DNA from: a virus
Taxonomy: Duplodnaviria; Heunggongvirae; Uroviricota; Caudoviricetes
Strand: one strand, 5' to 3'
Length of the DNA stretch: 25,462 nucleotides
IMG/VR virus record: IMGVR_UViG_2698536672_000007
Positions 9,496 through 25,462 of the stretch are shown here, piece by piece. The position numbers and the translations under genes were made by a program. The notes beneath the pieces are model-generated. The model searched no databases and was not told the origin of the DNA. It saw only the letters and a program-made list of their open reading frames with translations. The number at the start of each line of letters is the position of its first letter. The first letter of the stretch is position 1.

Positions 9496-11262
9496 ATGAA
9501 CACCACACTGACACCCGCAGATCTCGATCCCCGTCGGCAGGCCATGCTGCTGTACTTTCAGGGATACCGCGTAGCCCGCATTGCTGAAATGCTGGGCGAG
9601 AAAGTTGCAACCGTTCACAGCTGGAAAAAACGCGACAAGTGGGGTGACTATGGGCCGCTGGATCAGATGCAGCTCACCACCGCCGCACGCTACTGCCAGC
9701 TCATTATGAAGGAGCACAAAGAAGGGAAAGATTTCAAAGAGATTGACCTGCTGGCGCGCCAGTCGGAGCGCCATGCGCGGATCGGCAAGTTTAACAATGG
9801 CGGCAACGAAGCCGACTTAAACCCTAACGTCGCCAACCGCAACAAAGGCCCGCGCCGTCAGCCGGAAAAGAACGTTTTCACCGATGAACAGATTGAGAAG
9901 CTGGAAGAAATCTTCCATTCCTCCATGTTCAACTACCAGCGCCACTGGTGGGAAGCCGGAAAAACCAACCGCATCCGCAACCTGCTGAAGTCACGCCAGA
10001 TCGGCGCGACCTTCTATTTTGCCCGTGAAGCCCTGATTGACGCCCTGCTAACCGGGCGTAACCAGATTTTCCTTTCCGCCAGCAAGGCTCAGGCCCACGT
10101 CTTTAAGCAGTACATCATCGACTTCGCCAAAGAAGTGGAGGTGGAGCTGAAAGGCGATCCGATGGTGCTTCCTAACGGGGCCACGCTGTACTTCCTCGGC
10201 ACCAATGCCCGCACGGCCCAGAGTTACCACGGCAACCTGTATCTGGATGAATATTTCTGGATACCGAAATTCCAAGAGCTGCGCAAAGTGGCTTCCGGTA
10301 TGGCTATTCACAAAAAATGGCGACAAACCTATTTTTCCACGCCATCCAGCCTGACACACAGTGCTTATCCGTTCTGGTCCGGTGCGCTGTTCAACCGAGG
10401 GCGCAACAAAGCCGATAAGGTGGACATCGACCTGTCCCACAGCAATCTGGCCCCCGGCCTGCTGTGCGCAGACGGGCAGTACCGCCAGATAGTCACTGTG
10501 GAAGATGCGGTGCGCGGCGGCTGTAACCTGTTCGACCTCGATCAGTTGCGCATGGAGTACAGCCCGGACGAATACCAGAACCTGCTGATGTGCGAGTTTG
10601 TGGACGATCTCGCGTCCGTGTTCCCGCTCAGCGAGCTGCAGGCGTGCATGGTGGACAGCTGGGAAGTCTGGACCGACTTTCATGCACTGGCTCTGCGCCC
10701 GTTTGGCTGGCGCGAAGTGTGGATCGGTTATGACCCGGCAAAAGGTACGCAAAACGGCGACAGCGCCGGATGCGTGGTGGTGGCACCGCCAGCCGTGCCG
10801 GGCGGTAAGTTCCGCATTCTTGAGCGTCACCAGTGGCGCGGGATGGACTTCCGCGCCCAGGCTGACGCCATCAAAAAACTGACCGAACAGTACAACGTGA
10901 CCTATATCGGTATCGACTCGACCGGCGTTGGTCACGGGGTTTATGAGAACGTGAAAGCGTTCTTTCCTGCCGTCCGGGAGTTTGTCTACAACCCCAACGT
11001 TAAAAACGCCCTGGTACTCAAGGCCTACGACATTATCAGCCACCGCCGTCTGGAGTTTGACGCCGGGCACACCGACATTGCGCAGTCATTCATGGCAATC
11101 CGTCGCGCCACCACCGCCAGTGGCAACCGCCCGACCTATGAAGCCAGCCGCAGCGAAGAAGCCAGCCACGCCGATCTGGCCTGGGCAACGATGCACGCAC
11201 TGTTTAACGAACCGCTGCAGGGCGAATCCGCCAATACCAGCAATATTGTGGAGATTTTTTGA
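9496..11262 (+). CDS. P: Terminase large (ATPase) subunit (P2 gpP-like)
   Basis: 588-aa ORF with ATG at 9496; size and position match P2 gpP; stop overlaps Q start (TGATG). Confidence 0.85.
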   Translation: MNTTLTPADLDPRRQAMLLYFQGYRVARIAEMLGEKVATVHSWKKRDKWGDYGPLDQMQLTTAARYCQLIMKEHKEGKDFKEIDLLARQSERHARIGKFNNGGNEADLNPNVANRNKGPRRQPEKNVFTDEQIEKLEEIFHSSMFNYQRHWWEAGKTNRIRNLLKSRQIGATFYFAREALIDALLTGRNQIFLSASKAQAHVFKQYIIDFAKEVEVELKGDPMVLPNGATLYFLGTNARTAQSYHGNLYLDEYFWIPKFQELRKVASGMAIHKKWRQTYFSTPSSLTHSAYPFWSGALFNRGRNKADKVDIDLSHSNLAPGLLCADGQYRQIVTVEDAVRGGCNLFDLDQLRMEYSPDEYQNLLMCEFVDDLASVFPLSELQACMVDSWEVWTDFHALALRPFGWREVWIGYDPAKGTQNGDSAGCVVVAPPAVPGGKFRILERHQWRGMDFRAQADAIKKLTEQYNVTYIGIDSTGVGHGVYENVKAFFPAVREFVYNPNVKNALVLKAYDIISHRRLEFDAGHTDIAQSFMAIRRATTASGNRPTYEASRSEEASHADLAWATMHALFNEPLQGESANTSNIVEIF

Positions 11263-12311
11263 TGGGAAAGAGTAAGAAGAACCGCGCTGCGGCGACGAAC
11301 CAGATTCAGCATAAAATCCAGACTTCAGCCGAAGCATTCAGCTTTGGCGATCCCATTCCAGTACTGGACCGCCGCGAACTGCTGGACTATGTGGAATGCG
11401 TACAGATGGACCGCTGGTATGAGCCGCCCGTCAGCTTTGACGGACTGGCACGAACCTTCCGCGCCGCCGTGCATCACAGTTCCCCGATTGCAGTAAAGTG
11501 CAACATTCTGACCAGTACCTATATCCCTCATCCGCTGCTCAGCCAACAGGCTTTTTCGCGTTTTGTGCAGGACTATCTGGTATTTGGTAACGCCTACCTG
11601 GAGAAACGCACGAACCGATTCGGTGAAGTTATAGCCCTTGAGCCTGCGCTGGCAAAATACACCCGACGCGGGTTAGACCTGGATACCTACTGGTTTGTGC
11701 AATACGGTATGACAACCCAGCCGTATCAGTTCACGAAAGGCAGCATTTTTCATCTGATGGAACCTGACATCAACCAGGAGATCTACGGCCTGCCAGGTTA
11801 TCTTTCTGCCATTCCGTCAGCCCTGCTCAACGAGTCCGCCACGCTGTTCCGCCGGAAGTATTATATTAACGGCAGTCATGCAGGCTTCATCATGTACATG
11901 ACCGATGCCGCGCAGAACCAGGAGGATGTGAACAACCTCCGCAATGCGATGAAAAGCGCCAAAGGCCCTGGCAACTTCCGCAACCTGTTTATGTACTCGC
12001 CTAACGGCAAAAAGGACGGGCTTCAGATCATCCCGTTGTCAGAAGTCGCGGCGAAGGATGAGTTTCTGAATATCAAGAACGTGAGCCGGGACGACATGAT
12101 GGCGGCACACCGTGTGCCGCCGCAAATGATGGGGATTATGCCAAGTAATGTTGGAGGATTTGGAGATGTAGAGAAGGCGAGTCGAGTGTTTGTTCGAAAT
12201 GAATTAATGCCTTTACAAAAACGATTACAGGAATTTAATGAATGGTTAGGAATTAATATTATCCATTTTGAAAAATATAACTTAATAAACGATGACCCAC
12301 AATCAACATAG
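11262..12311 (+). CDS. Q: Portal protein (P2 gpQ-like) with compositionally atypical 3' end
   Basis: ORF-track start 11259 is TTG; ATG at 11262 (MGKSKKNRAAATNQ...). Portal-like sequence follows P as in the P2 P-Q operon. The last ~55 codons (about 12150..12311) are markedly AT-rich. Confidence 0.85.
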   Translation: MGKSKKNRAAATNQIQHKIQTSAEAFSFGDPIPVLDRRELLDYVECVQMDRWYEPPVSFDGLARTFRAAVHHSSPIAVKCNILTSTYIPHPLLSQQAFSRFVQDYLVFGNAYLEKRTNRFGEVIALEPALAKYTRRGLDLDTYWFVQYGMTTQPYQFTKGSIFHLMEPDINQEIYGLPGYLSAIPSALLNESATLFRRKYYINGSHAGFIMYMTDAAQNQEDVNNLRNAMKSAKGPGNFRNLFMYSPNGKKDGLQIIPLSEVAAKDEFLNIKNVSRDDMMAAHRVPPQMMGIMPSNVGGFGDVEKASRVFVRNELMPLQKRLQEFNEWLGINIIHFEKYNLINDDPQST

Positions 12312-12341: not shown

Positions 12342-13680
12342 CATAAGCGCTAACTTAAGGGTTGTGGTATTACGCCTGATATGATTTAACGTGCCGATGA
12401 ATTACTCTCACGATAACTGGTCAGCAATTCTGGCCCATATTGGTAAGCCCGAAGAACTGGATACTTCGGCACGTAATGCCGGGGCTCTAACCCGCCGCCG
12501 CGAAATTCGTGATGCTGCAACTCTGCTACGTCTGGGGCTGGCTTACGGCCCCGGGGGGATGTCATTACGTGAAGTCACTGCATGGGCTCAGCTCCATGAC
12601 GTTGCAACATTATCTGACGTGGCTCTCCTGAAGCGGCTGCGGAATGCCGCCGACTGGTTTGGCATACTTGCCGCACAAACACTTGCTGTACGCGCCGCAG
12701 TTACGGGTTGTACAAGCGGAAAGAGATTGCGTCTTGTCGATGGAACAGCAATCAGTGCGCCCGGGGGCGGCAGCGCTGAATGGCGACTACATATGGGATA
12801 TGATCCTCATACCTGTCAGTTCACTGATTTTGAGCTAACCGACAGCAGAGACGCTGAACGGCTGGACCGATTTGCGCAAACGGCAGACGAGATACGCATT
12901 GCTGACCGGGGATTCGGTTCGCGTCCCGAATGTATCCGCTCACTTGCTTTTGGAGAAGCTGATTATATCGTCCGGGTTCACTGGCGAGGATTGCGCTGGT
13001 TAACTGCAGAAGGAATGCGCTTTGACATGATGGGTTTTCTGCGCGGGCTGGATTGCGGTAAGAACGGTGAAACCACTGTAATGATAGGCAATTCAGGTAA
13101 TAAAAAAGCCGGAGCTCCCTTTCCGGCACGTCTCATTGCCGTATCACTTCCTCCCGAAAAAGCATTAATCAGTAAAACCCGACTGCTCAGCGAGAATCGT
13201 CGAAAAGGACGAGTAGTTCAGGCGGAAACGCTGGAAGCAGCGGGCCATGTGCTATTGCTAACATCATTACCGGAAGATGAATATTCAGCAGAGCAAGTGG
13301 CTGATTGTTACCGTCTGCGATGGCAAATTGAACTGGCTTTTAAGCGGCTCAAAAGTTTGCTGCACCTGGATGCTTTGCGTGCAAAGGAACCTGAACTCGC
13401 GAAAGCGTGGATATTTGCTAATCTACTCGCCGCATTTTTAATTGACGACATAATCCAGCCATCGCTGGATTTCCCCCCCAGAAGTGCCGGATCCGAAAAG
13501 AAGAACTAACTCGTTGTGGAGAATAACAAAAATGGTCATCTGGAGCTTACAGGTGGCCATTCGTGGGACAGTATCCCTGACAGCCTACAAAACGCAATTG
13601 AAGAACGCGAGGCATCGTCTTAACGAGGCACCGAGGCGTCGCATTCTTCAGATGGTTCAACCCTTAAGTTAGCGCTTATG
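12342..13680 (+). mobile_element. IS186 (IS4 family) insertion sequence, apparently complete
   Basis: 23-bp terminal inverted repeats CATAAGCGCTAACTTAAGGGTTG (12342..12364) and its reverse complement (13658..13680); a single 370-aa transposase ORF; flanked by a 10-bp duplication of a G-run/C-run palindrome, the known IS186 target preference. Confidence 0.85.
12397..13509 (+). CDS. insL: IS186 transposase (DDE, IS4 family)
   Basis: Protein MNYSHDNWSAILAHIGKPEELDTSARNAG... matches the E. coli IS186 transposase as I recall it; ORF-track start at 12391 is GTG, ATG at 12397 gives 370 aa. Confidence 0.9.
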   Translation: MNYSHDNWSAILAHIGKPEELDTSARNAGALTRRREIRDAATLLRLGLAYGPGGMSLREVTAWAQLHDVATLSDVALLKRLRNAADWFGILAAQTLAVRAAVTGCTSGKRLRLVDGTAISAPGGGSAEWRLHMGYDPHTCQFTDFELTDSRDAERLDRFAQTADEIRIADRGFGSRPECIRSLAFGEADYIVRVHWRGLRWLTAEGMRFDMMGFLRGLDCGKNGETTVMIGNSGNKKAGAPFPARLIAVSLPPEKALISKTRLLSENRRKGRVVQAETLEAAGHVLLLTSLPEDEYSAEQVADCYRLRWQIELAFKRLKSLLHLDALRAKEPELAKAWIFANLLAAFLIDDIIQPSLDFPPRSAGSEKKN

Positions 13681-13698: not shown

Positions 13699-15891
13699 TT
13701 AAGTACGTAACATAATTTGCTGTTGAACTTGGATAGGCTGTAAGGTTTGATATTTCTGCCTAATTAGGTTATATAAATCCGGCATTTCTTCAGCAGATAA
13801 AGTCACAACAAGAACATATGGTAGTTCTTCTAACTCGTCAACATCAATAGGCATACCACAGTCTCTACCATAGTAGATAATATCAAAGCATGGGTTTGTC
13901 AGCTCATTCGGTTTAAATTTGTGTTCACTTCTTAACGTAGTCTCCCATTTATGTGCATCAACACGTTGCTCATTTTCATCTGCATAAACATTTTTTAGAT
14001 TAAAAAGAGGAAACGTTAACCCGGAACTATCTGAAACACCTTTTCTCATGGTTACTTCTAGACCGCTTCTTGTATAATTCAAAGGATGTTCCGCATCTAC
14101 AGGACTGGAAAAACAGAATGTCGCTCTTAAATTTACACATCCACGCATAGGTACATCTGGAAACGGAATAGGTGCTCGCATGTGTTGTGATGGTTTTAAA
14201 GTACCTTGATATATAACTTTAACTTCATCATCATCACAAAATATTACTTCACTAAGATCATGAGGAAATCGTCCCCAACCAACTTCAGCACGATTGATAT
14301 TATTGCTCTCCGCATGATGTATAAGCAGAGCTTTAGCCGTAAGTGGTGTAATGTTGTAATTTAGAGAAGCACTTAACGCGATTGCTTGCCTCAGGACTAA
14401 TGGAGCAGAAAAGCTAGTCCCCGCAGTGCGGGCAAGACCATTAACCATAGGGCTGTATACCTGGAATGGCTCATCAGAATGTCCTCCAAATGCAACTCCA
14501 TCAGGCTTCACAAAGCCAGGGCTTCGTCCAGGACCAATACAACTGTAAGAACATCTTTCCCAACTATCAGATAAAGAGGTTGCTGCACCTACTGACAGAC
14601 CATTAACTAAATCAGCAGGTGGTTGAATTCGATTTAACCTGGCAGGCAGCTGACCATCATTTCCAACCGCGACAGTACAAAGTGTTTCTCCTGATGCAAG
14701 TATCTCCTCAAGAGTTGAGGTCCACACATGCACGTCATCGTCATCAACAGGTAATCTAGGTCCTAAGCTCAGATTGATATAATCATATTTTTTTTGTTCT
14801 AATACACTTTTAATACGGATCAGAACGTCAAAAAGATCGACATCTGAGTTATTAACATTGGAATCCAGTACACGATAATGGTCAATATTACAATAAGGGA
14901 CACTTAATTTTTCCGTTTCAGAGCCAAGAACACCAAATAACACAGTAGAGGTGACATCCTGTCCATGAGAAAGAAGTTTTGCATTAGTACTAGCATTACC
15001 GTTGAAAGTGTACTCTGTTACCCAAGGATTGAAATCATCGATCCCCAATCCACCATCGAATATGGCAACCTTTATGTGTGGGTTTACCGCTCCTTCAGAT
15101 GGTAAACTAAGGTTAGATGTTTGAATCACAGAACGTGATATAACAGGCTCACTTAGCCTTAATTCAGGAAGTTCTCTCAAAGTCCTGAGAAATGAAAACT
15201 CTGCAACTTTTAAAGCTACATCTTTACTAGCCTTAATAGGCATAAAGGTTAGCCCCTTAACTTTTATACTTCTTGCCTTATCTATAACAGCACCATTTTG
15301 CGAAGCAAAAACTTCAAAACTATCGACAATAGAGGAACTTGTATCAGGAGTATGTAAGGCGACCTCAATACTCATAACTTCATTGCTATTAATCGTTTTT
15401 ACTTTATCTGAAACTTCCAGTATTGAAATATTTTCTAAGGTGACAAAATCATTTTGCTGCCCTTTCGTTAGGGTATCTTGATTTACAGAGTCTAAGAATG
15501 ATTGAAAACTTTCTTTTTTGCCAGAAACATAAATACACGCTGTAGTGTATTCCTCTTTTCGCCCTCTTTTTTTAATATCTTTTCTAGGTTTTACTTTTAC
15601 AGCCTTACTGCCTATGCTTTCTAGGGAAAATCGCTCAAAAAGACTTACTGGAAAATAACTTTTTGCTAAGAATGCCGGATGCAAAACAAATTTTGCTACA
15701 GCCTTACCTTCAGGCATTGCTAACAATGGAAGGGTATTAATTTCCTCAATCAACTCTTCCAGTTGAGCAGATATCACTGGTTTATTTTCTGAATAAGAGT
15801 AAGGTTTATTCTTTTCACCTCCACCTCTGTTAAGTTTAACAGGGTCAGTTAGTGTTTCACCATAGCCAAGAAGCATATTTTTATCATTCAT
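13699..15891 (-). CDS. Subtilisin-like serine protease (MEROPS S8-type catalytic core) with large N- and C-terminal extensions; candidate defence effector
   Basis: Catalytic motifs in D-H-S order: VAIFDGGLG (Asp), LSHGQDVTS (His), YINLSLGP (oxyanion Asn), GTSFSAPLV (Ser). No signal peptide. ORF-track first codon is TTG at 15906; I prefer ATG at 15891 (MNDKNMLLGYGE...), preceded by GAGGA with a 9-nt spacer and overlapping the upstream ATPase stop by 8 nt. Low GC. Confidence 0.75.
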   Translation of the reverse strand: MNDKNMLLGYGETLTDPVKLNRGGGEKNKPYSYSENKPVISAQLEELIEEINTLPLLAMPEGKAVAKFVLHPAFLAKSYFPVSLFERFSLESIGSKAVKVKPRKDIKKRGRKEEYTTACIYVSGKKESFQSFLDSVNQDTLTKGQQNDFVTLENISILEVSDKVKTINSNEVMSIEVALHTPDTSSSIVDSFEVFASQNGAVIDKARSIKVKGLTFMPIKASKDVALKVAEFSFLRTLRELPELRLSEPVISRSVIQTSNLSLPSEGAVNPHIKVAIFDGGLGIDDFNPWVTEYTFNGNASTNAKLLSHGQDVTSTVLFGVLGSETEKLSVPYCNIDHYRVLDSNVNNSDVDLFDVLIRIKSVLEQKKYDYINLSLGPRLPVDDDDVHVWTSTLEEILASGETLCTVAVGNDGQLPARLNRIQPPADLVNGLSVGAATSLSDSWERCSYSCIGPGRSPGFVKPDGVAFGGHSDEPFQVYSPMVNGLARTAGTSFSAPLVLRQAIALSASLNYNITPLTAKALLIHHAESNNINRAEVGWGRFPHDLSEVIFCDDDEVKVIYQGTLKPSQHMRAPIPFPDVPMRGCVNLRATFCFSSPVDAEHPLNYTRSGLEVTMRKGVSDSSGLTFPLFNLKNVYADENEQRVDAHKWETTLRSEHKFKPNELTNPCFDIIYYGRDCGMPIDVDELEELPYVLVVTLSAEEMPDLYNLIRQKYQTLQPIQVQQQIMLRT

Positions 15892-16966
15892 TGTCTTCAT
15901 CCTCAACCGTCAAAACCTTACGTACTTGTGACCTTGAAATCCCCAAATCTAAAGCGATTTTTCTTTGTGATACATTGTTGTTTGACATGTTTTTTATAAC
16001 ATCATCAAGTGACACGCCATCTAACAACTCATCAATTAAAGCTGAACTTAAAGGAATATCTTCTATAATGGCATTTCTTTTAGCTTGATTTATAGCTCTC
16101 TCAAGAACTGCATATGAAACTTTTTCGAGTTTTGTAGCAATATAGTACGATAAGCTATCTCCAATATTTTTAGAACAGAGATATCTTCTCATTAGGTCTT
16201 GTGTTGGATATTCAAAATCAATAACTCGATCGAATCTTCTCCATGCAGCAGGATCAAGCAGCTCCGCATGGTTAGTTGCTGCTATAAGAACAGACGTATT
16301 TGGCCATTCATCAATTGCTTGCAATAATACTGTAACTAATCTTTTTAGTTCTCCAACATCTGTTGCATCATCCCTTTTTTTAGCAATCGCATCAAATTCG
16401 TCAAGAAGCAGTACACAAGGGAATGACGAAGCATAATTGAGGACTGCCTTAATATTATTACCCGTTTTCCCCAAGTAGCTACTCATTACACTTGCGAGAT
16501 CTAATGTTAACAATGGCATATCGAGTTTAAAAGCGAGCCACTTTGCAGCCAAAGTCTTCCCCACACCGGGTGGTCCTCCCATAAGAAGAGATTTGGAGGG
16601 ATGCAACCCTTCTTTATAAAGGCGTTCTTTCATTTCCCACTCAGCCACAAATCGATTCAGTTGAACATCAGTTTTTGTTGGCCAAACAGGTTCAACATCA
16701 ATGACCACAGGATATGTTTCAACTAGCAGCTTTTGTCTTGTATCCGCATCAACAGGTGTTATTTTAGGAACAACTGGATTAGCCCTTTCGACTGCAATTG
16801 CGCCACCCGTATTAATAAGTAAATCTTCTAATTTACCCGCTAATTCAGGAGATTCTTTTTTTAGTTTTTTTGCCATAATCCGCAACCGCATGAGGAGACT
16901 TTCCCTCTTCCCCGTAAGAGCATCACTGACAACATCAATGAGCATTTCGTTTGTAACGTTTATCAT
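15884..16966 (-). CDS. AAA+ ATPase (classic AAA clade) with C-terminal helix-turn-helix; candidate defence sensor/regulator
   Basis: Walker A GGPPGVGKT, Walker B VLLLDEFD, sensor-1 LIAATN, second region of homology AAWRRFDRVI; C-terminal NVSQRKIALDLGISRSQVRKVL resembles a Fis/LuxR-type HTH. ATG at 16966; low GC. Confidence 0.75.
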   Translation of the reverse strand: MINVTNEMLIDVVSDALTGKRESLLMRLRIMAKKLKKESPELAGKLEDLLINTGGAIAVERANPVVPKITPVDADTRQKLLVETYPVVIDVEPVWPTKTDVQLNRFVAEWEMKERLYKEGLHPSKSLLMGGPPGVGKTLAAKWLAFKLDMPLLTLDLASVMSSYLGKTGNNIKAVLNYASSFPCVLLLDEFDAIAKKRDDATDVGELKRLVTVLLQAIDEWPNTSVLIAATNHAELLDPAAWRRFDRVIDFEYPTQDLMRRYLCSKNIGDSLSYYIATKLEKVSYAVLERAINQAKRNAIIEDIPLSSALIDELLDGVSLDDVIKNMSNNNVSQRKIALDLGISRSQVRKVLTVEDEDNE

Positions 16967-17156
16967 CTAACCACCCTTATGGCAAAACCGAACCACTTTT
17001 CAAACAATCATACACCAAAAAAACCTTTTTAAGGTAATTTTGAACCAAAAAAAATATTTTTAGCACCACAAATGCTCAAAACAAAACCAGTGACACTTTT
17101 GTATAACAACTAAAACCACCTATCGACAAAAATTTAGCTAAACCTTTTCAGCGCGC

Positions 17157-17176
17157 GCTCGTATCCCCGCCACGCC
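17157..17176. other. Candidate cohesive-end (cos) site of the P2/186 family
   Basis: Reverse complement reads GGCGTGGCGGGGATACGAGC; the first 13 nt match the G-rich core I recall for P2/186 cohesive ends (GGCG[A/T]GGCGGGGA...). Recalled, not searched. Confidence 0.4.
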
Positions 17177-17220
17177 TGCCCGCTTTATGTAGTGGTTTTC
17201 ATGCACCTGCATGATCTACG

Positions 17221-17246
17221 CAAAAGCCCGCCAGTTCTGGCGGGCC
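17221..17246 (-). terminator. Rho-independent terminator candidate for the minus-strand SOS operon
   Basis: Inverted repeat GCCCGCCA-GTTC-TGGCGGGC (8-bp GC-rich stem) followed on the minus strand by TTTTG. Confidence 0.5.
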
Positions 17247-17380
17247 TTAGCAAAAACGATCCTCAAACGATCATGCGATCTCATGCGGCATAGACATGCA
17301 CTACAGAGCTAACGCCTCGCAAGGGCTCGTTGTTCAACCTTGCTGACGCCAGAAACAAGTTCAGACGCCAGCAACGTTTC

Positions 17381-17614
17381 TTAATGCAGCCAGCTGTCGT
17401 CTTCCCACACCTTCTGCATAATTTTCATCACTTGTTTTCTTTCTTCGTCCAGTTGCAGTCCGGTCAGTTCCACACCGTTAGAGCTACCTTTGCGGATACG
17501 AATTACCGTTTTGGGATACAGGGGGCGCAGATTGCGGTAAAGCTCGGATTCAAGGGCGTCCAGTGTAGACTGGCTAATCTTTTGCTCTTTATCGATCATT
17601 ATTTCAATGCGCAT
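17381..17614 (-). CDS. DinI-like protein (SOS-regulated RecA modulator family)
   Basis: 77 aa from ATG 17614 (MRIEIMIDKEQKISQSTLDALESELYRNL...KIMQKVWEDDSWLH); recalls E. coli DinI in length, the MRIE start and the acidic W-containing C-terminus. SD GAGGTGA with a 5-nt spacer. ORF-track start 17686 is upstream in the same frame. Confidence 0.6.
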   Translation of the reverse strand: MRIEIMIDKEQKISQSTLDALESELYRNLRPLYPKTVIRIRKGSSNGVELTGLQLDEERKQVMKIMQKVWEDDSWLH

Positions 17615-17624
17615 AAAAGTCACC

Positions 17625-17813
17625 TCAGCTGATGACATCCATTGAGCGGTTGTATTCGTGGGTTCTGATTTTTGCCATGAGTTCATCTGTCAGTTCAGAA
17701 ACCCACTGCAGGGCCAGCCCCTTCTCTTCATCACTACACTCACTAGCCGCTACAAGCTTAAGAAAAAAATCAATGCGCTGGAGCTTCAAAGACTCCAAAA
17801 AATAGTCCTGCAT
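17625..17813 (-). CDS. Small protein in a LexA-controlled operon; possible Tum-like antirepressor N-terminal module
   Basis: 62-aa ORF with ATG at 17813 preceded by AGGAGG; a LexA box lies in its promoter region; position between A and cos corresponds to the 186 tum locus. Confidence 0.45.
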   Translation of the reverse strand: MQDYFLESLKLQRIDFFLKLVAASECSDEEKGLALQWVSELTDELMAKIRTHEYNRSMDVIS

Positions 17814-17853
17814 CTTTCCTCCTATGACACCAAAGCAATACTGTATACATAAC

Positions 17854-17873
17854 CACTGTTTATATTTACAGTA
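17854..17873 (-). promoter_or_regulatory. LexA (SOS) box
   Basis: cACTGTttatatttACAGta matches the CTGT-N8-ACAG consensus (TACTGTATATATATACAGTA) at 17 of 20 positions; about 40-60 bp upstream of the 62-aa ORF. Confidence 0.6.
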
Positions 17874-17965
17874 TATAATAATCTTACTGATGTAAAACGT
17901 TTTTTTACGTTCATCAGCCTGATATGCCTGGTATTATTAAGAGCACGAATTGTTAACCCGCGTAA

Positions 17966-20380
17966 TTAATACAGATTCCGCCACTTATCATCTTCCCGCA
18001 AACGCTGGTTCCGATAGAAGATACGCAGGCCTGCTCCTGACGGAATACTGCCACCGCGAAGGAGTAAATCGACCTCTTTCTCGCTGCCATCAAATCCTCT
18101 GGACTTCAGTTCATAGACGAGCTGCTGTCGCTGATCATCTGTAATTCGCTGTTTGTAGTCTTTACGCCGTTTCGGCTTAACCAGGCGTAACCTTGCTGCC
18201 AGTTCCCGGCGCTCTTTTTTGCTCATACTGTGCAGGTAATCGTGCAACTCCTTGTCATCCATGCGGGTAATGTCCGTTCTGGTGTCCCCATCAGCTGATT
18301 TATCTTTCTCCTGTTGGTTCAAATTTTCCGCAAGGGGACAGTTATTGCCACGAGTCCAAGGGGCGCAAGCGCCCTGGTCGGCTGCCGCCTCCTGAACGTC
18401 AACGGCTTTACGAACCATTTTCCACTTCACTGCATGAGTGCAGATCTTGCCCTCTGCAATGGGTGACCAGATGCCATAAATACGAATGCCGTGATCGCCA
18501 TAGGCGGTCGGCTCTTCGTTGATTTCATAAGCGGTTCTGATGAGGTGATATTTACGGGGAACCAGTACGCCGCCCTGCTTCATGATGTAGGTGGCAAAAC
18601 AACCAGCATCAGCAGCAGCCAGAATGGCATCAAGACGCGGGTTATCCAGTACCGGCGCACCTGCTTTTTTGTCACCCTGTTGCCTTGCCGCCTGACCAGC
18701 CAGCAAGCGAAGTTCACGGTAAGCCTGACGCCCCGGAATACCAAAGAAGCGGAATTGCTGAACACGATGCAGAGACGCCCAGGCATTCACGTATTCAGCG
18801 TTATCACGCAGAGATTTACCCGTTTCCTTGCTGATCTCGCCAGCCAGACCACGACCGTCAATGTTCTTACTGATATATTTCGCGATGTAGCTTGTCGGCG
18901 TTCCTTTGCGCGGGTTAATCAACTCAGACTTAAAGCGCGGCCCAGTGTTATTGCCCAGCTCCTCGCGGTCTTCACGGATGGCAAACTTACGCAGTAATGC
19001 AGTGATGGCACGGCGGTCTTTTTTGCGCATGAAACACAACAGGTGCCAGTGAACTGTGCCATCATGATGCGGCTCAGCCACCCGCACGCCATACCAGCGC
19101 AACCCGGCTTTGTGCATCGCCTTACGAAATGCAGCAAACATGCCGACCAGATAATCGCTGCTTTGTCTTACCGTCGCGTTTGTCCAGGTCGGGTTTGGTC
19201 TGCCGTTATTTAGCGTGGAATGGAAACGCGACGGACAGGTGATAGTGTAGAAAACGGCGCAGTCACCGCGCATTTCCGCGATAAGCTCCAGACCTTTAAC
19301 ACAGGCCATCATCTCATTGCGGCGATGCGCAGGGTTGCTGCTGCTGGCGTTTACCACATCCTCCATGTCCAGCGTGTCGCCGTCTTCGTTCACCAGTTCA
19401 TGAGAACGGAAAAACTCCAGCGACTTACGGCGCTGCTCACGTTTATGCATCACGGCTTCATAGCTGACATAAGGAGATGCTTTTTTGCTGACCAGGCAAA
19501 CAGCGCGCAACTGCTCTTCCCGCCATTCGCAACGCATCTTCCATAATTTCCGGTACCACCAGTCGGCGCACAACATACGCGCCAGCGAACCCGGAATGAG
19601 TTCATAGGGCACGGGTTTACGGCGGTTTCTTTTCCGACGGAGTTGCTCAAACGCAGGTGGGATGACATCCAGACGCAGGGTTTCCGCTGCCACCTTTTCC
19701 CATGTCTTGCGGATTTCTTCTGGCTTAACGTCATCGGTGGCATACAAATCACCACAAGCTGCATCAAGGCACATACTCATATGCGCAGCTACCAGGGTGG
19801 ACAGGCGTTTCACCTGATCCTGACTCATTTCAGGCAGGATCAGCAGGCCGTCCAGCCCTTCATGGCTTGCCATAAAGCGAAAAGATGCAGATAGCTGACT
19901 GTCGCGTACATGCTCCAGTCGTTCCAGACATGGCTTAATCGTCTCACGTAAATAGCGGGAATAAGCCTTTGGCCTGCCCAGGCTGCTGAAGTATTCAATA
20001 CGTTGCATCAGCGGCTTGCTGATATGGGAAGGCTGGGCGTTGACGTCCGCCAGAATGACCATGTCTGAATTAAAACGCTGCTGCTCATGCGCCAGCTTTG
20101 CCCGGCTAATGAGCTTATCCTGCTCCATTTCGCGCTGGACAGGATCACGTGATTCATTAAAGAAATAACGCTCCCAGACCTGATCACTCAGTGCCTCGCG
20201 GCGCAACTGTTCCTGCTCGTTATCGGCAGCGTACAGAGTGATCAGGTTTGAAAGCGTAGAAACCGGCGCAACTTCCGCCGGGTCCAGATAAGGGTTAATG
20301 GCCTTTTTCGGGCTGTTCCATGAGAATGCTGCGGCAGCCTCGTTAAAGCCGCAGCAGTTGTTCATATCGGCATGACTCAT
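17966..20380 (-). CDS. A: Replication initiation endonuclease (P2 gpA-like rolling-circle initiator)
   Basis: 804-aa ORF with ATG at 20380; contains [14 protein letters not shown], matching the conserved active-site tyrosine region of P2 gpA as I recall it. Confidence 0.85.
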
Positions 20381-23299: not shown

Positions 23300-23388
23300 A
23301 AGGCAACATTCCTTCTAGATATGGCTTGTGGCGAGCCGTTGTTTGTCGTGATTAGTAGTGAAGGCTCCAAAAGAACACTTCTGGTTCA

Positions 23389-23417
23389 ACTTTAAGATCG
23401 CTTTTGGAATCTGTCAA
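23389..23417 (-). promoter_or_regulatory. Candidate lytic promoter pR (-35 TTGACA, 17-bp spacer, -10 TAAAGT) directed towards apl
   Basis: Minus strand reads TTGACA-N17-TAAAGT in the apl-cI intergenic region. Confidence 0.45.
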
Positions 23418-23444
23418 CGAATTTTGGATTTTTTTGGAGGACTT

Positions 23445-24014
23445 GTGGATTTCAATAGCGGCGGTAAGAAAGCCATAGAACGTTTAGTTGAAGCATATGG
23501 GTTCGGTACCCGTCAGGCTCTATGTGATCATTTAGGTGTTTCTAAGAGCACCATGGCAACGCGCTATATGCGTGATATTTTTCCAGCAGATTGGGTAATC
23601 CAGTGCGCCCTTGAAACGGGCACCTCGCTTAATTGGCTAACAACAGGGCATGGTTCAAAGCAAGCATCAGCAAATACAAATACTATAGAAGTAGAAAAAT
23701 ATTTATTGTCTGATGGAGCATTGCAGAAAGACGGTTTTTATATTTTTGATAAGGGATTTCTACCCTCTACGTTTAAAAAACCTTTTGTCATCACAGATAA
23801 CAATTCTGAATTTATTTGTGATAAAGAATTTGATGATATACGTGATGGTAAATGGGTAATAAGTATTGATGGCGAAATAACGATCCGTGACATTACTCGT
23901 TTACCCGGTGGAAGAATCTTCGTCGAGGGTGGAAACAGAGCCTTCGAATGCAAGATAGAAGACATTGAAATAATTGGTAAAATTATAAGTTTAACAGTCA
24001 AGTATGTTAAATAG
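23445..24014 (+). CDS. cI: CI-like immunity repressor (HTH N-terminal domain, AT-rich C-terminal domain)
   Basis: ORF-track start 23358 is GTG and would place pR inside the gene; GTG at 23445 preceded by GGAGG gives 189 aa, close to the ~192-aa 186 CI. HTH-like QALCDHLGVSKSTMATRYMRD. Start uncertain. Confidence 0.65.
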   Translation: MDFNSGGKKAIERLVEAYGFGTRQALCDHLGVSKSTMATRYMRDIFPADWVIQCALETGTSLNWLTTGHGSKQASANTNTIEVEKYLLSDGALQKDGFYIFDKGFLPSTFKKPFVITDNNSEFICDKEFDDIRDGKWVISIDGEITIRDITRLPGGRIFVEGGNRAFECKIEDIEIIGKIISLTVKYVK

Positions 24015-24029
24015 TACCGGGAGGAAACT

Positions 24030-24221
24030 ATGCTTGGTAAGGTATTTTTTGTGGTTTTGTCATGTTCTTTGTTATTAAACCCACTAACTACCTATGCTAG
24101 AAATTATCCCTGCTCAGGGAAAAAGGGAGGTGTTTCTCACTGTACCTCAGATGGCAAATTCGTTTGCAATGATGGAACTATTAGTAAATCCAAAAAAATC
24201 TGTACTAAAAACTCACGATAA
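24030..24221 (+). CDS. Small secreted cysteine-rich protein (possible lysogenic-conversion moron)
   Basis: 63 aa; ATG at 24030 preceded by GGGAGG with a 6-nt spacer; signal peptide [23 protein letters not shown] followed by a ~40-aa Lys-rich mature region with four Cys; AT-rich. Confidence 0.5.
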
Positions 24222-24409
24222 CTTTTGCTTTTATATCTGCGTCTAAAATAAAAATGAGCCGCAGGTTAACCGCAAAAGTTACATGCTCACATAGCAAAAA
24301 GAATAGCCAACTTAATTATGGCTTCAGTGAGATGTATGGTCGTAGGATTTCATACATTGACACTGGTTATACATACAGTGAAAATGCTCTCTACTGGAGG
24401 GCATTTTTT

Positions 24410-25462
24410 ATGGCAGTACGAAAACTCACCACTGGGAAATGGCTTTGCGAATGTTACCCCGCCGGACGAAGTGGGCGTCGTGTGCGTAAACAATTCGTCA
24501 CCAAAGGCGAAGCACTGGCTTTTGAGCGCCACACGATGGAAGAAACCGAAGCAAAGCCCTGGCTGGGTGAATCAGTGGATCGTCGAACACTGAAAGACGT
24601 GGTTGAGCTATGGTTCAAACTACATGGTAAATCTCTGACAGCTGGGCAGCATGTCTATGACAAATTGCTGTTGATGGTTGACGCTCTGGGCAATCCTCTT
24701 GCAACCGATCTCACCTCTAAAATGTTTGCCCACTATCGAGATAAACGCCTGACAGGCGAGATCTACTTCAGCGAGAAATGGAAGAAAGGAGCAAGCCCGG
24801 TCACCATTAACCTGGAGCAAAGCTATCTAAGTAGTGTTTTTAGCGAACTATCCCGTCTGGGCGAATGGTCGTATCCGAACCCACTGGAGAACATGCGAAA
24901 ATTCACCATCGCAGAAAAAGAGATGGCATGGCTTACCCATGAGCAGATTGTTGAATTGCTGGCTGATTGCAAACGTCAGGACCCAATTCTGGCACTGGTA
25001 GTTAAGATATGCTTAAGCACAGGCGCACGCTGGCGTGAAGCCGTAAATCTTACCCGCTCACAGGTGACCAAATACCGAATTACCTTTGTCAGAACGAAGG
25101 GGAAGAAAAACAGAAGCATCCCTATCAGTAAAGAGCTTTACGAAGAGATCATGGCGCTTGATGGGTTCAATTTCTTCACAGACTGCTATTTTCAATTTTT
25201 ATCCGTGATGGAAAAAACGTCTATCGTGCTCCCTCGCGGTCAACTCACACACGTTCTGCGCCATACGTTTGCGGCGCACTTCATGATGTCGGGTGGAAAC
25301 ATTCTGGCCTTACAAAAAATTCTCGGACACCACGATATAAAAATGACTATGCGTTACGCACATCTGGCACCGGATCATCTGGAAACGGCGCTCCGTTTCA
25401 ATCCTCTGGCAACGCTGCCAAGTGGCGACAAAGTGGCGGCAGCGGTTGGCATTACCCCGTAA
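24410..25462 (+). CDS. int: Tyrosine integrase (P2/186 family)
   Basis: ORF-track start 24254 is likely over-extended; ATG at 24410 (MAVRKLTTGKWLCECYPAG...) gives 350 aa. Catalytic region HVLRHTFAAH ... HHDIKMTMRYAHL with the tyrosine nucleophile. Stop coincides with the window end. Confidence 0.85.
   Translation: MAVRKLTTGKWLCECYPAGRSGRRVRKQFVTKGEALAFERHTMEETEAKPWLGESVDRRTLKDVVELWFKLHGKSLTAGQHVYDKLLLMVDALGNPLATDLTSKMFAHYRDKRLTGEIYFSEKWKKGASPVTINLEQSYLSSVFSELSRLGEWSYPNPLENMRKFTIAEKEMAWLTHEQIVELLADCKRQDPILALVVKICLSTGARWREAVNLTRSQVTKYRITFVRTKGKKNRSIPISKELYEEIMALDGFNFFTDCYFQFLSVMEKTSIVLPRGQLTHVLRHTFAAHFMMSGGNILALQKILGHHDIKMTMRYAHLAPDHLETALRFNPLATLPSGDKVAAAVGITP

Follow-up and report, generated by a model that had tools for sequence, protein, structure and literature searches.

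Genes and operator of the tumA-tumB module

The window analysed here, i.e. the whole stretch of 25,462 nucleotides of the IMG/VR record IMGVR_UViG_2698536672_000007, is a prophage of the P2/186 family (Peduoviridae), in reversed orientation relative to the P2 map. The subject of the analysis is a compact module of its minus strand, on which the replication gene A (17966-20380; Phage_GPA, E 1e-127) precedes, in this order, an intergenic region, two small genes and cos. Coordinates 17381-17873 extend exactly from the stop codon of the second, DinI-like gene to the outer edge of a LexA box. In minus-strand order the module comprises: (i) a -35 hexamer, (ii) a 17-bp spacer, (iii) the hexamer TACTGT, (iv) the rest of LexA box 1, (v) an overlapping LexA box 2, (vi) the Shine-Dalgarno sequence AGGAGG, (vii) orf62, and (viii) an open reading frame (ORF) of 77 codons. 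A sequence-only reading of this DNA had placed two small minus-strand genes between A and cos, in the position of the tum locus of phage 186, and both the genes and their position were recovered. The first, orf62, is a tumA-type gene (17625-17813, minus strand; 62 amino acids), and the second is a tumB-type gene (17381-17614, minus strand; 77 amino acids). A gap of 10 nucleotides separates them, and the Shine-Dalgarno sequence of the second gene (GAGGTG, 17621-17626) overlaps the tumA stop codon; tumB is probably translationally coupled to tumA.

The promoter of the module consists of a -35 hexamer TTTACA (17891-17896, minus strand) located 17 bp upstream of a -10 hexamer TACTGT (17868-17873, minus strand). 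LexA box 1, the 20-mer TACTGTAAATATAAACAGTG (17854-17873, minus strand), starts with the latter hexamer and contains a perfect CTGT-N8-ACAG at 17856-17871. Candidate LexA sites were scored with a rough matrix derived from 20 Escherichia coli sites (scores of the training sites, 2.1-12.2), and box 1 was the top LexA-like site of the whole window (heterology-index-like score 4.6), which bore out the earlier proposal of a LexA box overlapping the promoter. The CTGT-N8-ACAG pattern occurs three times in the window, compared with 0.33 expected, and none of 100 shuffled sequences reached this number. LexA box 2, CAGTGGTTATGTATACAGTA (17839-17858, minus strand; score 10.1), overlaps box 1 by 5 bp. 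A generic scan for sigma-70 promoters reported none at the tum operon, because TACTGT matches three of the six bases of TATAAT and the rule of the scan needs at least four; the promoter was assigned instead from the annotation of promoter p95 of phage 186 and from conservation. The start of box 1 coincides exactly with the -10 hexamer, and this layout equals that of the annotated p95 promoter and LexA site in the 186 GenBank record.

Conservation was examined in 33 genome loci retrieved with orf62 as the single-protein query, which originate from Escherichia, Citrobacter, Enterobacter, Klebsiella, Raoultella, Serratia, Pantoea, Erwinia, Tatumella and other genera. A LexA box precedes the tumA homologue in 32 of the 33 loci; box 1 could be located in 31, and 23 of these have TTTACA exactly 17 bp upstream of it. 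Spacers and leaders vary among these loci while the promoter and the half-sites of the box stay, so that the conservation of promoter and box is, as judged from the alignments, a clear phylogenetic footprint. Box 1 is unchanged in Fels-2, phage 500465-1 and phage 813R9. A second box at an offset of +15 bp, also with half-sites kept and spacers varying, is found in 21 loci; of the others, ten carry only one box, one carries no box and one is truncated by the end of its contig.

The whole operator, TACTGTAAATATAAACAGTGGTTATGTATACAGTA, aligns over approx. 41 bp with the operators upstream of the colicin N, pesticin and one pore-forming colicin gene of small plasmids (86-90% identity). The operators of colicin N, pesticin and ColE1-like colicins likewise contain two LexA boxes at a 15-bp offset, with CAGTG common to both boxes, but they drive bacteriocin genes instead of a putative prophage induction operon, and their -35 region and leader are unrelated to those found here. 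By its arrangement, the operator is assigned to the colicin type of double SOS operators, with two overlapping LexA boxes at a 15-bp offset, and its likeness to the colicin operators may reflect either common descent or the same binding constraints. The double boxes of colicin genes have been reported to bind two LexA dimers, resulting in very tight repression (PMC2994835).

Directly after tumB lies a hairpin lacking a U-tract (17336-17378, minus strand; -23.5 kcal/mol, z-score -3.7), which is possibly a partial terminator or an RNA-stability element and may be compared with the partial terminator t95a found after tum in 186. It is followed by a predicted rho-independent terminator, GGCCCGCCAG-AACU-CUGGCGGGC then UUUUG (17219-17248, minus strand; -27.6 kcal/mol, z-score -5.1). 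None of 200 shuffled sequences folded as well as the latter, which sits within a stretch aligning to the right end of 186 and ends the operon before cos. The cohesive-end 19-mer of cos, GGCGTGGCGGGGATACGAG (17158-17176, minus strand), matches the annotated 186 cos in 15 of 19 bases, and its upstream flank aligns with the last approx. 60 bases of the 186 genome. A third gene of the orf97 type is absent from the operon, as only hairpins, the terminator and cos follow tumB; such a gene is present in the 186 and Fels-2 operons, but not in that of PSP3, so it is not strictly defining. A scan of positions 16900-18100 against Rfam returned nothing meaningful. Downstream of gene A, an imperfect hairpin, CUGAUGAACGU-AAAAAA-ACGUUUUACAUCAG (17881-17923, minus strand), overlaps the tum -35 hexamer; it is weak (z -2.0), and could insulate the SOS operon from read-through of the A transcript, as noted for the LexA loci of Gifsy phages (PMC3121763).

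The two gene products and their known relatives

No family was assigned to the orf62 product in Pfam, NCBIfam or PADLOC; in PHROGs it matched phrog_698 alone ("unknown function"), and its RefSeq name is "hypothetical protein". An exhaustive search of 1.8 billion representative proteins yielded 66 relatives, down to approx. 36% identity, and the family shares the motif ES-x-x-LQRI-x-L-x-x-RLVA-x-x-x-C-x-x-x-DKELA-x-x-W-x-x-EL. A family profile built from 28 sequences aligned residues 5-45 with residues 5-45 of 186 Tum (hhalign probability 94.8%, E 4.9e-8) and, in the same register, with TumA of phage PSP3 (E 3.5e-3). Furthermore, the "tum" genes of Yersinia phages, present at the same locus, are matched weakly both by orf62 and by the N-terminal half of Tum. 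The AlphaFold model of the protein is a two-helix hairpin (helices 2-23 and 28-61; mean predicted local distance difference test score 86.8), and reading the alignment on this model places the near-invariant Cys of the family in the hairpin turn. Searching PDB with a TumA profile gave no match. According to the profile alignments, orf62 corresponds to the N-terminal half of 186 Tum, the half that is not DinI-like; it is therefore likely to be the anti-repressor, with the DinI-like gene as an accessory. Many distant proteins of the TumA family (P0147, P0149, P0152, P0155, P0169, P0172, P0177 and P0181) end with a conserved Gly-rich tail, ...K(N/S)PQxGG...G..(L/F)Q, which is lacking in the protein of the window and in 186 Tum.

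The product of the second gene had been described as DinI-like, and alignment with 186 Tum and E. coli DinI had been proposed as a check; both relationships were found. TumB matches Pfam DinI (PF06183) with E 6.6e-23 (81.3 bits vs the gathering cut-off of 24.2), and E. coli DinI (PDB 1GHH) over its full length (E 2.7e-6), including the region of the C-terminal acidic WED motif. It shares 41% identity with residues 71-145 of 186 Tum and 78% with PSP3 TumB. With 42.7 bits it did not reach the cut-off (111) of the NCBIfam DinI equivalog NF007893, and it is therefore regarded as a DinI-like paralogue, not as the host DinI. The similarity between Tum and DinI, also put forward by the sequence-only reading, is thus real, but it is confined to the C-terminal half of Tum, while orf62 corresponds to the N-terminal part. 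A longer ORF of 101 codons (17381-17686) was rejected as the DinI-like gene, since its extension overlaps tumA in another frame and is without homology; the 77-codon form, which matches PSP3 and Fels-2 TumB end to end, was preferred.

In 13 of the 33 related loci no tumB was detected by tblastn (E <= 1e-5), and 12 of these keep the LexA box upstream of tumA, which fits tumA as the essential part of the module. In the exception, L041 of Siccibacter turicensis, the tumA homologue is kept and the LexA box has decayed, with no box scoring; neither CI nor tumB was found at this locus, which may be a prophage remnant.

The closest precedent is the Salmonella prophage Fels-2, in which STM2728 and STM2727 (STM2726.1) form the same two genes, with the same promoter, double LexA operator and position downstream of A. 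The DNA of the two loci is approx. 98% identical from the end of A through the tumB stop codon, operator included, and orf62 shares 98% identity with STM2728. Box 2 of Fels-2 differs by 2 spacer bases, and Fels-2 runs on into the orf97-like gene STM2726 before cos, whereas the homology to the window stops at the tumB stop codon. In Salmonella TA100, a carrier of Fels-2, the operon STM2726-STM2727-STM2728 was called differentially expressed upon treatment with the mutagen MX, and STM2727 was up 5.5-, 11.1- and 14.8-fold, among the strongest responses of the LexA regulon (PMC2225428). The order of the locus tags makes STM2727 the DinI-like gene. In Salmonella, loss of lexA by a null mutation is reportedly lethal because of Fels-2, according to the title of a paper by Bunny and colleagues from 2002.

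Phage PSP3 shows the same split, i.e. a small upstream gene and a 77-amino-acid DinI-like gene behind a LexA box, but its LexA box is single and near-consensus, and its TumA is approx. 24% identical to orf62. Its GenBank record describes tumA as "similar to 5' end 186 tum; UV induction of prophage" and tumB as "similar to dinI and 3' end of 186 tum". According to Lemire et al. (2011), Tum looks like an anti-repressor fused to DinI, tum is split in two by a stop codon in Fels-2 and PSP3, and the anti-repressor activity of PSP3 was placed in the upstream gene (a personal communication of Christie, via Bunny et al., 2002) (PMC3121763).

The p95-tum-orf97 operon of coliphage 186 has the same position between A and cos, the same -10/LexA layout and the same type of CI, CII and Apl, and both halves of Tum have homologues in the window. 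In 186, however, the halves are fused in one 146-amino-acid Tum with internal starts, the near-consensus LexA box is single, orf97 is included, and the N-terminal half of Tum is only approx. 20% identical to orf62. Induction of 186 through LexA de-repression of p95, with Tum sequestering CI, is established (PMC7708051). Further parallels are the dinI-gfoA/gftA operons of Gifsy-1, -2 and -3, which also combine a LexA box, a DinI homologue, a small anti-repressor and an uncleaved repressor (PMC3121763), but have dinI first (reversed order) and belong to lambdoid phages with another repressor family.

Among 5426 complete E. coli genomes, 1125 contain the module, and dozens of phage records from Klebsiella, Salmonella and Yersinia contain it too. 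The split-tum arrangement is already known from Fels-2 and PSP3 and is very common, and the gain over published work is small. Details beyond the sequence-only reading are the double SOS operator, a LexA-like box upstream of int, and the presence of the same TumA with strongly diverged repressors.

The resident repressor and the proposed induction switch

Genes similar to cI, cII and apl of 186 had been recognized by the sequence-only reading, and each has a counterpart in the window. The immunity repressor CI (23358-24014, plus strand; the true start codon inside the ORF is uncertain) contains the domains Phage_CI_repr (PF07022, E 3e-31) and Phage_CI_C (PF16452, E 5e-29), CII is present (PF06892), and the ORF in the apl position is weakly similar to Apl of Fels-2 and 186. 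In the Pfam search of CI, Peptidase_S24 stayed below threshold. From its domain composition, CI is classified as a 186-type repressor and not a self-cleaving S24 protein; since self-cleavage on RecA filaments is not expected of such a CI, SOS induction would need an anti-repressor.

CI is 33% identical to 186 CI and 38% identical to Fels-2 CI, and in the latter comparison the N-terminal domains share approx. 63-70% and the C-terminal domains 23% identity. In general, TumA proteins 69-100% identical to orf62 occur together with CI proteins that, compared with the CI of the window, mostly share 60-79% identity in the N-terminal domain and only 21-40% in the C-terminal domain. Recognition by TumA of some conserved feature in the CI N-terminal domain would be consistent with this pattern. 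The co-variation of TumA with the CI domains across 29 loci gave Spearman coefficients close to zero (0.07 and -0.03 for the N- and C-terminal domain, respectively), so that the two proteins show no simple co-variation. In Pantoea stewartii (locus L032), a Fels-2-type TumA (84% identical) occurs together with a 186-like CI (60% identical to 186 CI); this apparent recombinant would constitute a natural test of TumA specificity.

We consider it very probable that the module is a LexA-repressed tumA-tumB SOS operon, serving as the induction switch of a prophage of the 186/Fels-2 type. In the lysogen, host LexA would occupy the two overlapping SOS boxes, and since these cover the -10 hexamer and the transcript start, the promoter would be shut off. 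Upon DNA damage, activated RecA would trigger LexA self-cleavage, and transcription of the operon would run from approx. 17860 as far as the terminator (17219-17248) that lies just ahead of cos. TumA, as a helical hairpin of 62 residues, is predicted to bind the 186-type CI and stop its binding to the operators, and the inactivation of CI would de-repress the early lytic promoter. TumB, in turn, is predicted to act on RecA filaments, tuning the timing or strength of the SOS signal, and not as an anti-repressor. The 186-type SOS induction proposed by the sequence-only reading is supported in this form, with the amendment that the exact precedent is the tumA-tumB pair of Fels-2 and PSP3, not the fused tum of 186. 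SOS inducibility of this particular prophage is a prediction, and, like LexA binding and TumA-CI binding, it is extrapolated from the relatives.

Several points weigh against this interpretation. The observations made on this prophage, i.e. sequence features, homologies, conservation and genomic context, are all at the sequence level. Box 2 is weak by itself (score 10.1). Comparing orf62 with either 186 Tum or PSP3 TumA by pairwise BLASTP gave no match, and the homology to Tum is visible only through profiles and intermediate sequences. The anti-repressor role of the upstream gene goes back to the personal communication on PSP3, whose TumA shares the low identity with orf62 given above. Finally, Fels-2 has a near-identical TumA, yet its CI is only 38% identical to the resident CI, so that the activity of TumA on the latter is inferred; the inference relies on the recurrence of the same TumA-CI pair in 813R9, Klebsiella phage 4LV2017 and locus L011. 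No published induction data for the closest phages, 4LV2017 and 813R9, were found in the literature.

The roles of the two genes might also be reversed, with TumB itself as the anti-repressor or induction effector and orf62 as an accessory or unrelated small gene. Tum of 186 does contain a DinI-like half, the Tum family as a whole bears the name of DinI in PHROG and RefSeq, and conservation to PSP3 is much higher for TumB (78%) than for TumA (24%); such high conservation, however, is more in keeping with a conserved host target, e.g. RecA, than with a repressor that diverges fast. The 13 tumA loci in which tblastn found no tumB, the report of anti-repressor activity in the upstream gene of PSP3 (PMC3121763), and the 186 record, in which truncated DinI-only Tum products are modulators and only full-length Tum inhibits CI binding, make this reversal highly improbable. 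Hardly more credible is the view that the operon is an SOS-induced accessory "moron", which modulates host RecA and the SOS response, a role that dinI homologues of lambdoid prophages may have, and takes no part in the lysis-lysogeny switch. LexA-controlled dinI homologues are common in prophages, their deletion in Gifsy phages left induction unaffected (PMC3121763), and orf62 is without an annotated function in any library searched. Nevertheless, orf62 and the anti-repressor half of Tum are homologous, the operon occupies the tum position in a phage whose CI is 186-type and apparently not self-cleaving, and the LexA-controlled operon of Gifsy also encodes an anti-repressor (PMC3121763).

It is somewhat less improbable, though still unlikely, that the module is intact and SOS-responsive while the prophage yields no phage, owing to a mismatch between TumA and CI or to damage of the element, e.g. 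by the insertion sequence (IS) near the portal gene. A CI that shares only 38% identity with its Fels-2 counterpart next to a TumA that shares 98%, and an IS transposase (12391-13509) between the portal gene and cos, would fit such an outcome, as would the Salmonella P2-like prophage BTP5, which has a tum homologue and from which no phage was detected with mitomycin C (PMC7067206). On the other hand, several independent phage records and genomes contain the same TumA-CI pairing, which argues for a working pair, and the IS and the neighbouring defence-like genes lie in a known cargo region, with no structural or replication ORF of the window seen interrupted. The BTP5 case bears on the outcome of induction, not on the identity of the module.

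Possible integrase promoter, cargo genes and implications

The LexA-like box found upstream of int, CACTGGTTATACATACAGTG (24361-24380; score 6.2), lies 30 bp upstream of the real int start (ATG at 24410), between a perfect -35 hexamer TTGACA (24357-24362) and a -10-like GAAAAT (whole site, 24357-24385). The background of LexA-like sites as good as this one is approx. 0.06 per kb. Its half-sites are kept, with varying spacers, in Klebsiella phages 4LV2017 and KP12, E. coli phage 813R9 and loci L011, L020 and L043, and all relatives with the box carry this type of integrase (at least 92% identity). The box is absent where int is approx. 53% identical or abuts cI directly, as in Fels-2. This distribution suggests an SOS-gated int promoter.

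Between cI and int there is also an ORF of 63 codons (24030-24221, plus strand), whose product has a hydrophobic, signal-peptide-like N-terminus and several Cys residues, and which matched phrog_6000 (function unknown) but no Pfam family; it is probably an accessory gene expressed during lysogeny (a "moron"). The same spot holds other cargo in relatives, e.g. a "chromosome segregation ATPase" in 813R9 and KP12.

A known cargo region extends from the portal gene to cos. The portal gene Q (11259-12311) is directly followed by an IS-type DDE transposase (12391-13509, plus strand; DDE_Tnp_1, E 2e-26), which adjoins two overlapping minus-strand genes (13699-16966) matching the anti-phage defence system IetAS: an IetA-like AAA ATPase (15884-16966, minus strand; E 7e-84) and an IetS-like S8 subtilase-like protein (13699-15906, minus strand; E 1e-48). 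Related phages hold genes with a TIR domain or Hypoth_Ymh genes in this region. No tRNA genes were found within the window.

As to the broader meaning of these observations, genes of the orf62 type (phrog_698), which annotation pipelines still call "hypothetical protein", can be labelled TumA-like anti-repressors. A more tentative proposal, which we regard as possible but rather doubtful, is that the Fels-2-type switch is wired unlike that of 186, with the double operator, a LexA-gated int promoter and a generalist TumA linked to one another. If so, the double LexA operator would lead to very tight, late and all-or-none firing, and the second LexA-gated promoter would make the supply of integrase SOS-dependent in this integrase lineage. 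A TumA recognising the conserved N-terminal DNA-binding domain of 186-type repressors could, moreover, cross-induce heteroimmune P2-like prophages residing in the same cell. For the prophage itself, the module predicts release by DNA-damaging agents, including SOS-triggering antibiotics, unlike in the case of P2, with the IetAS genes carried as cargo.

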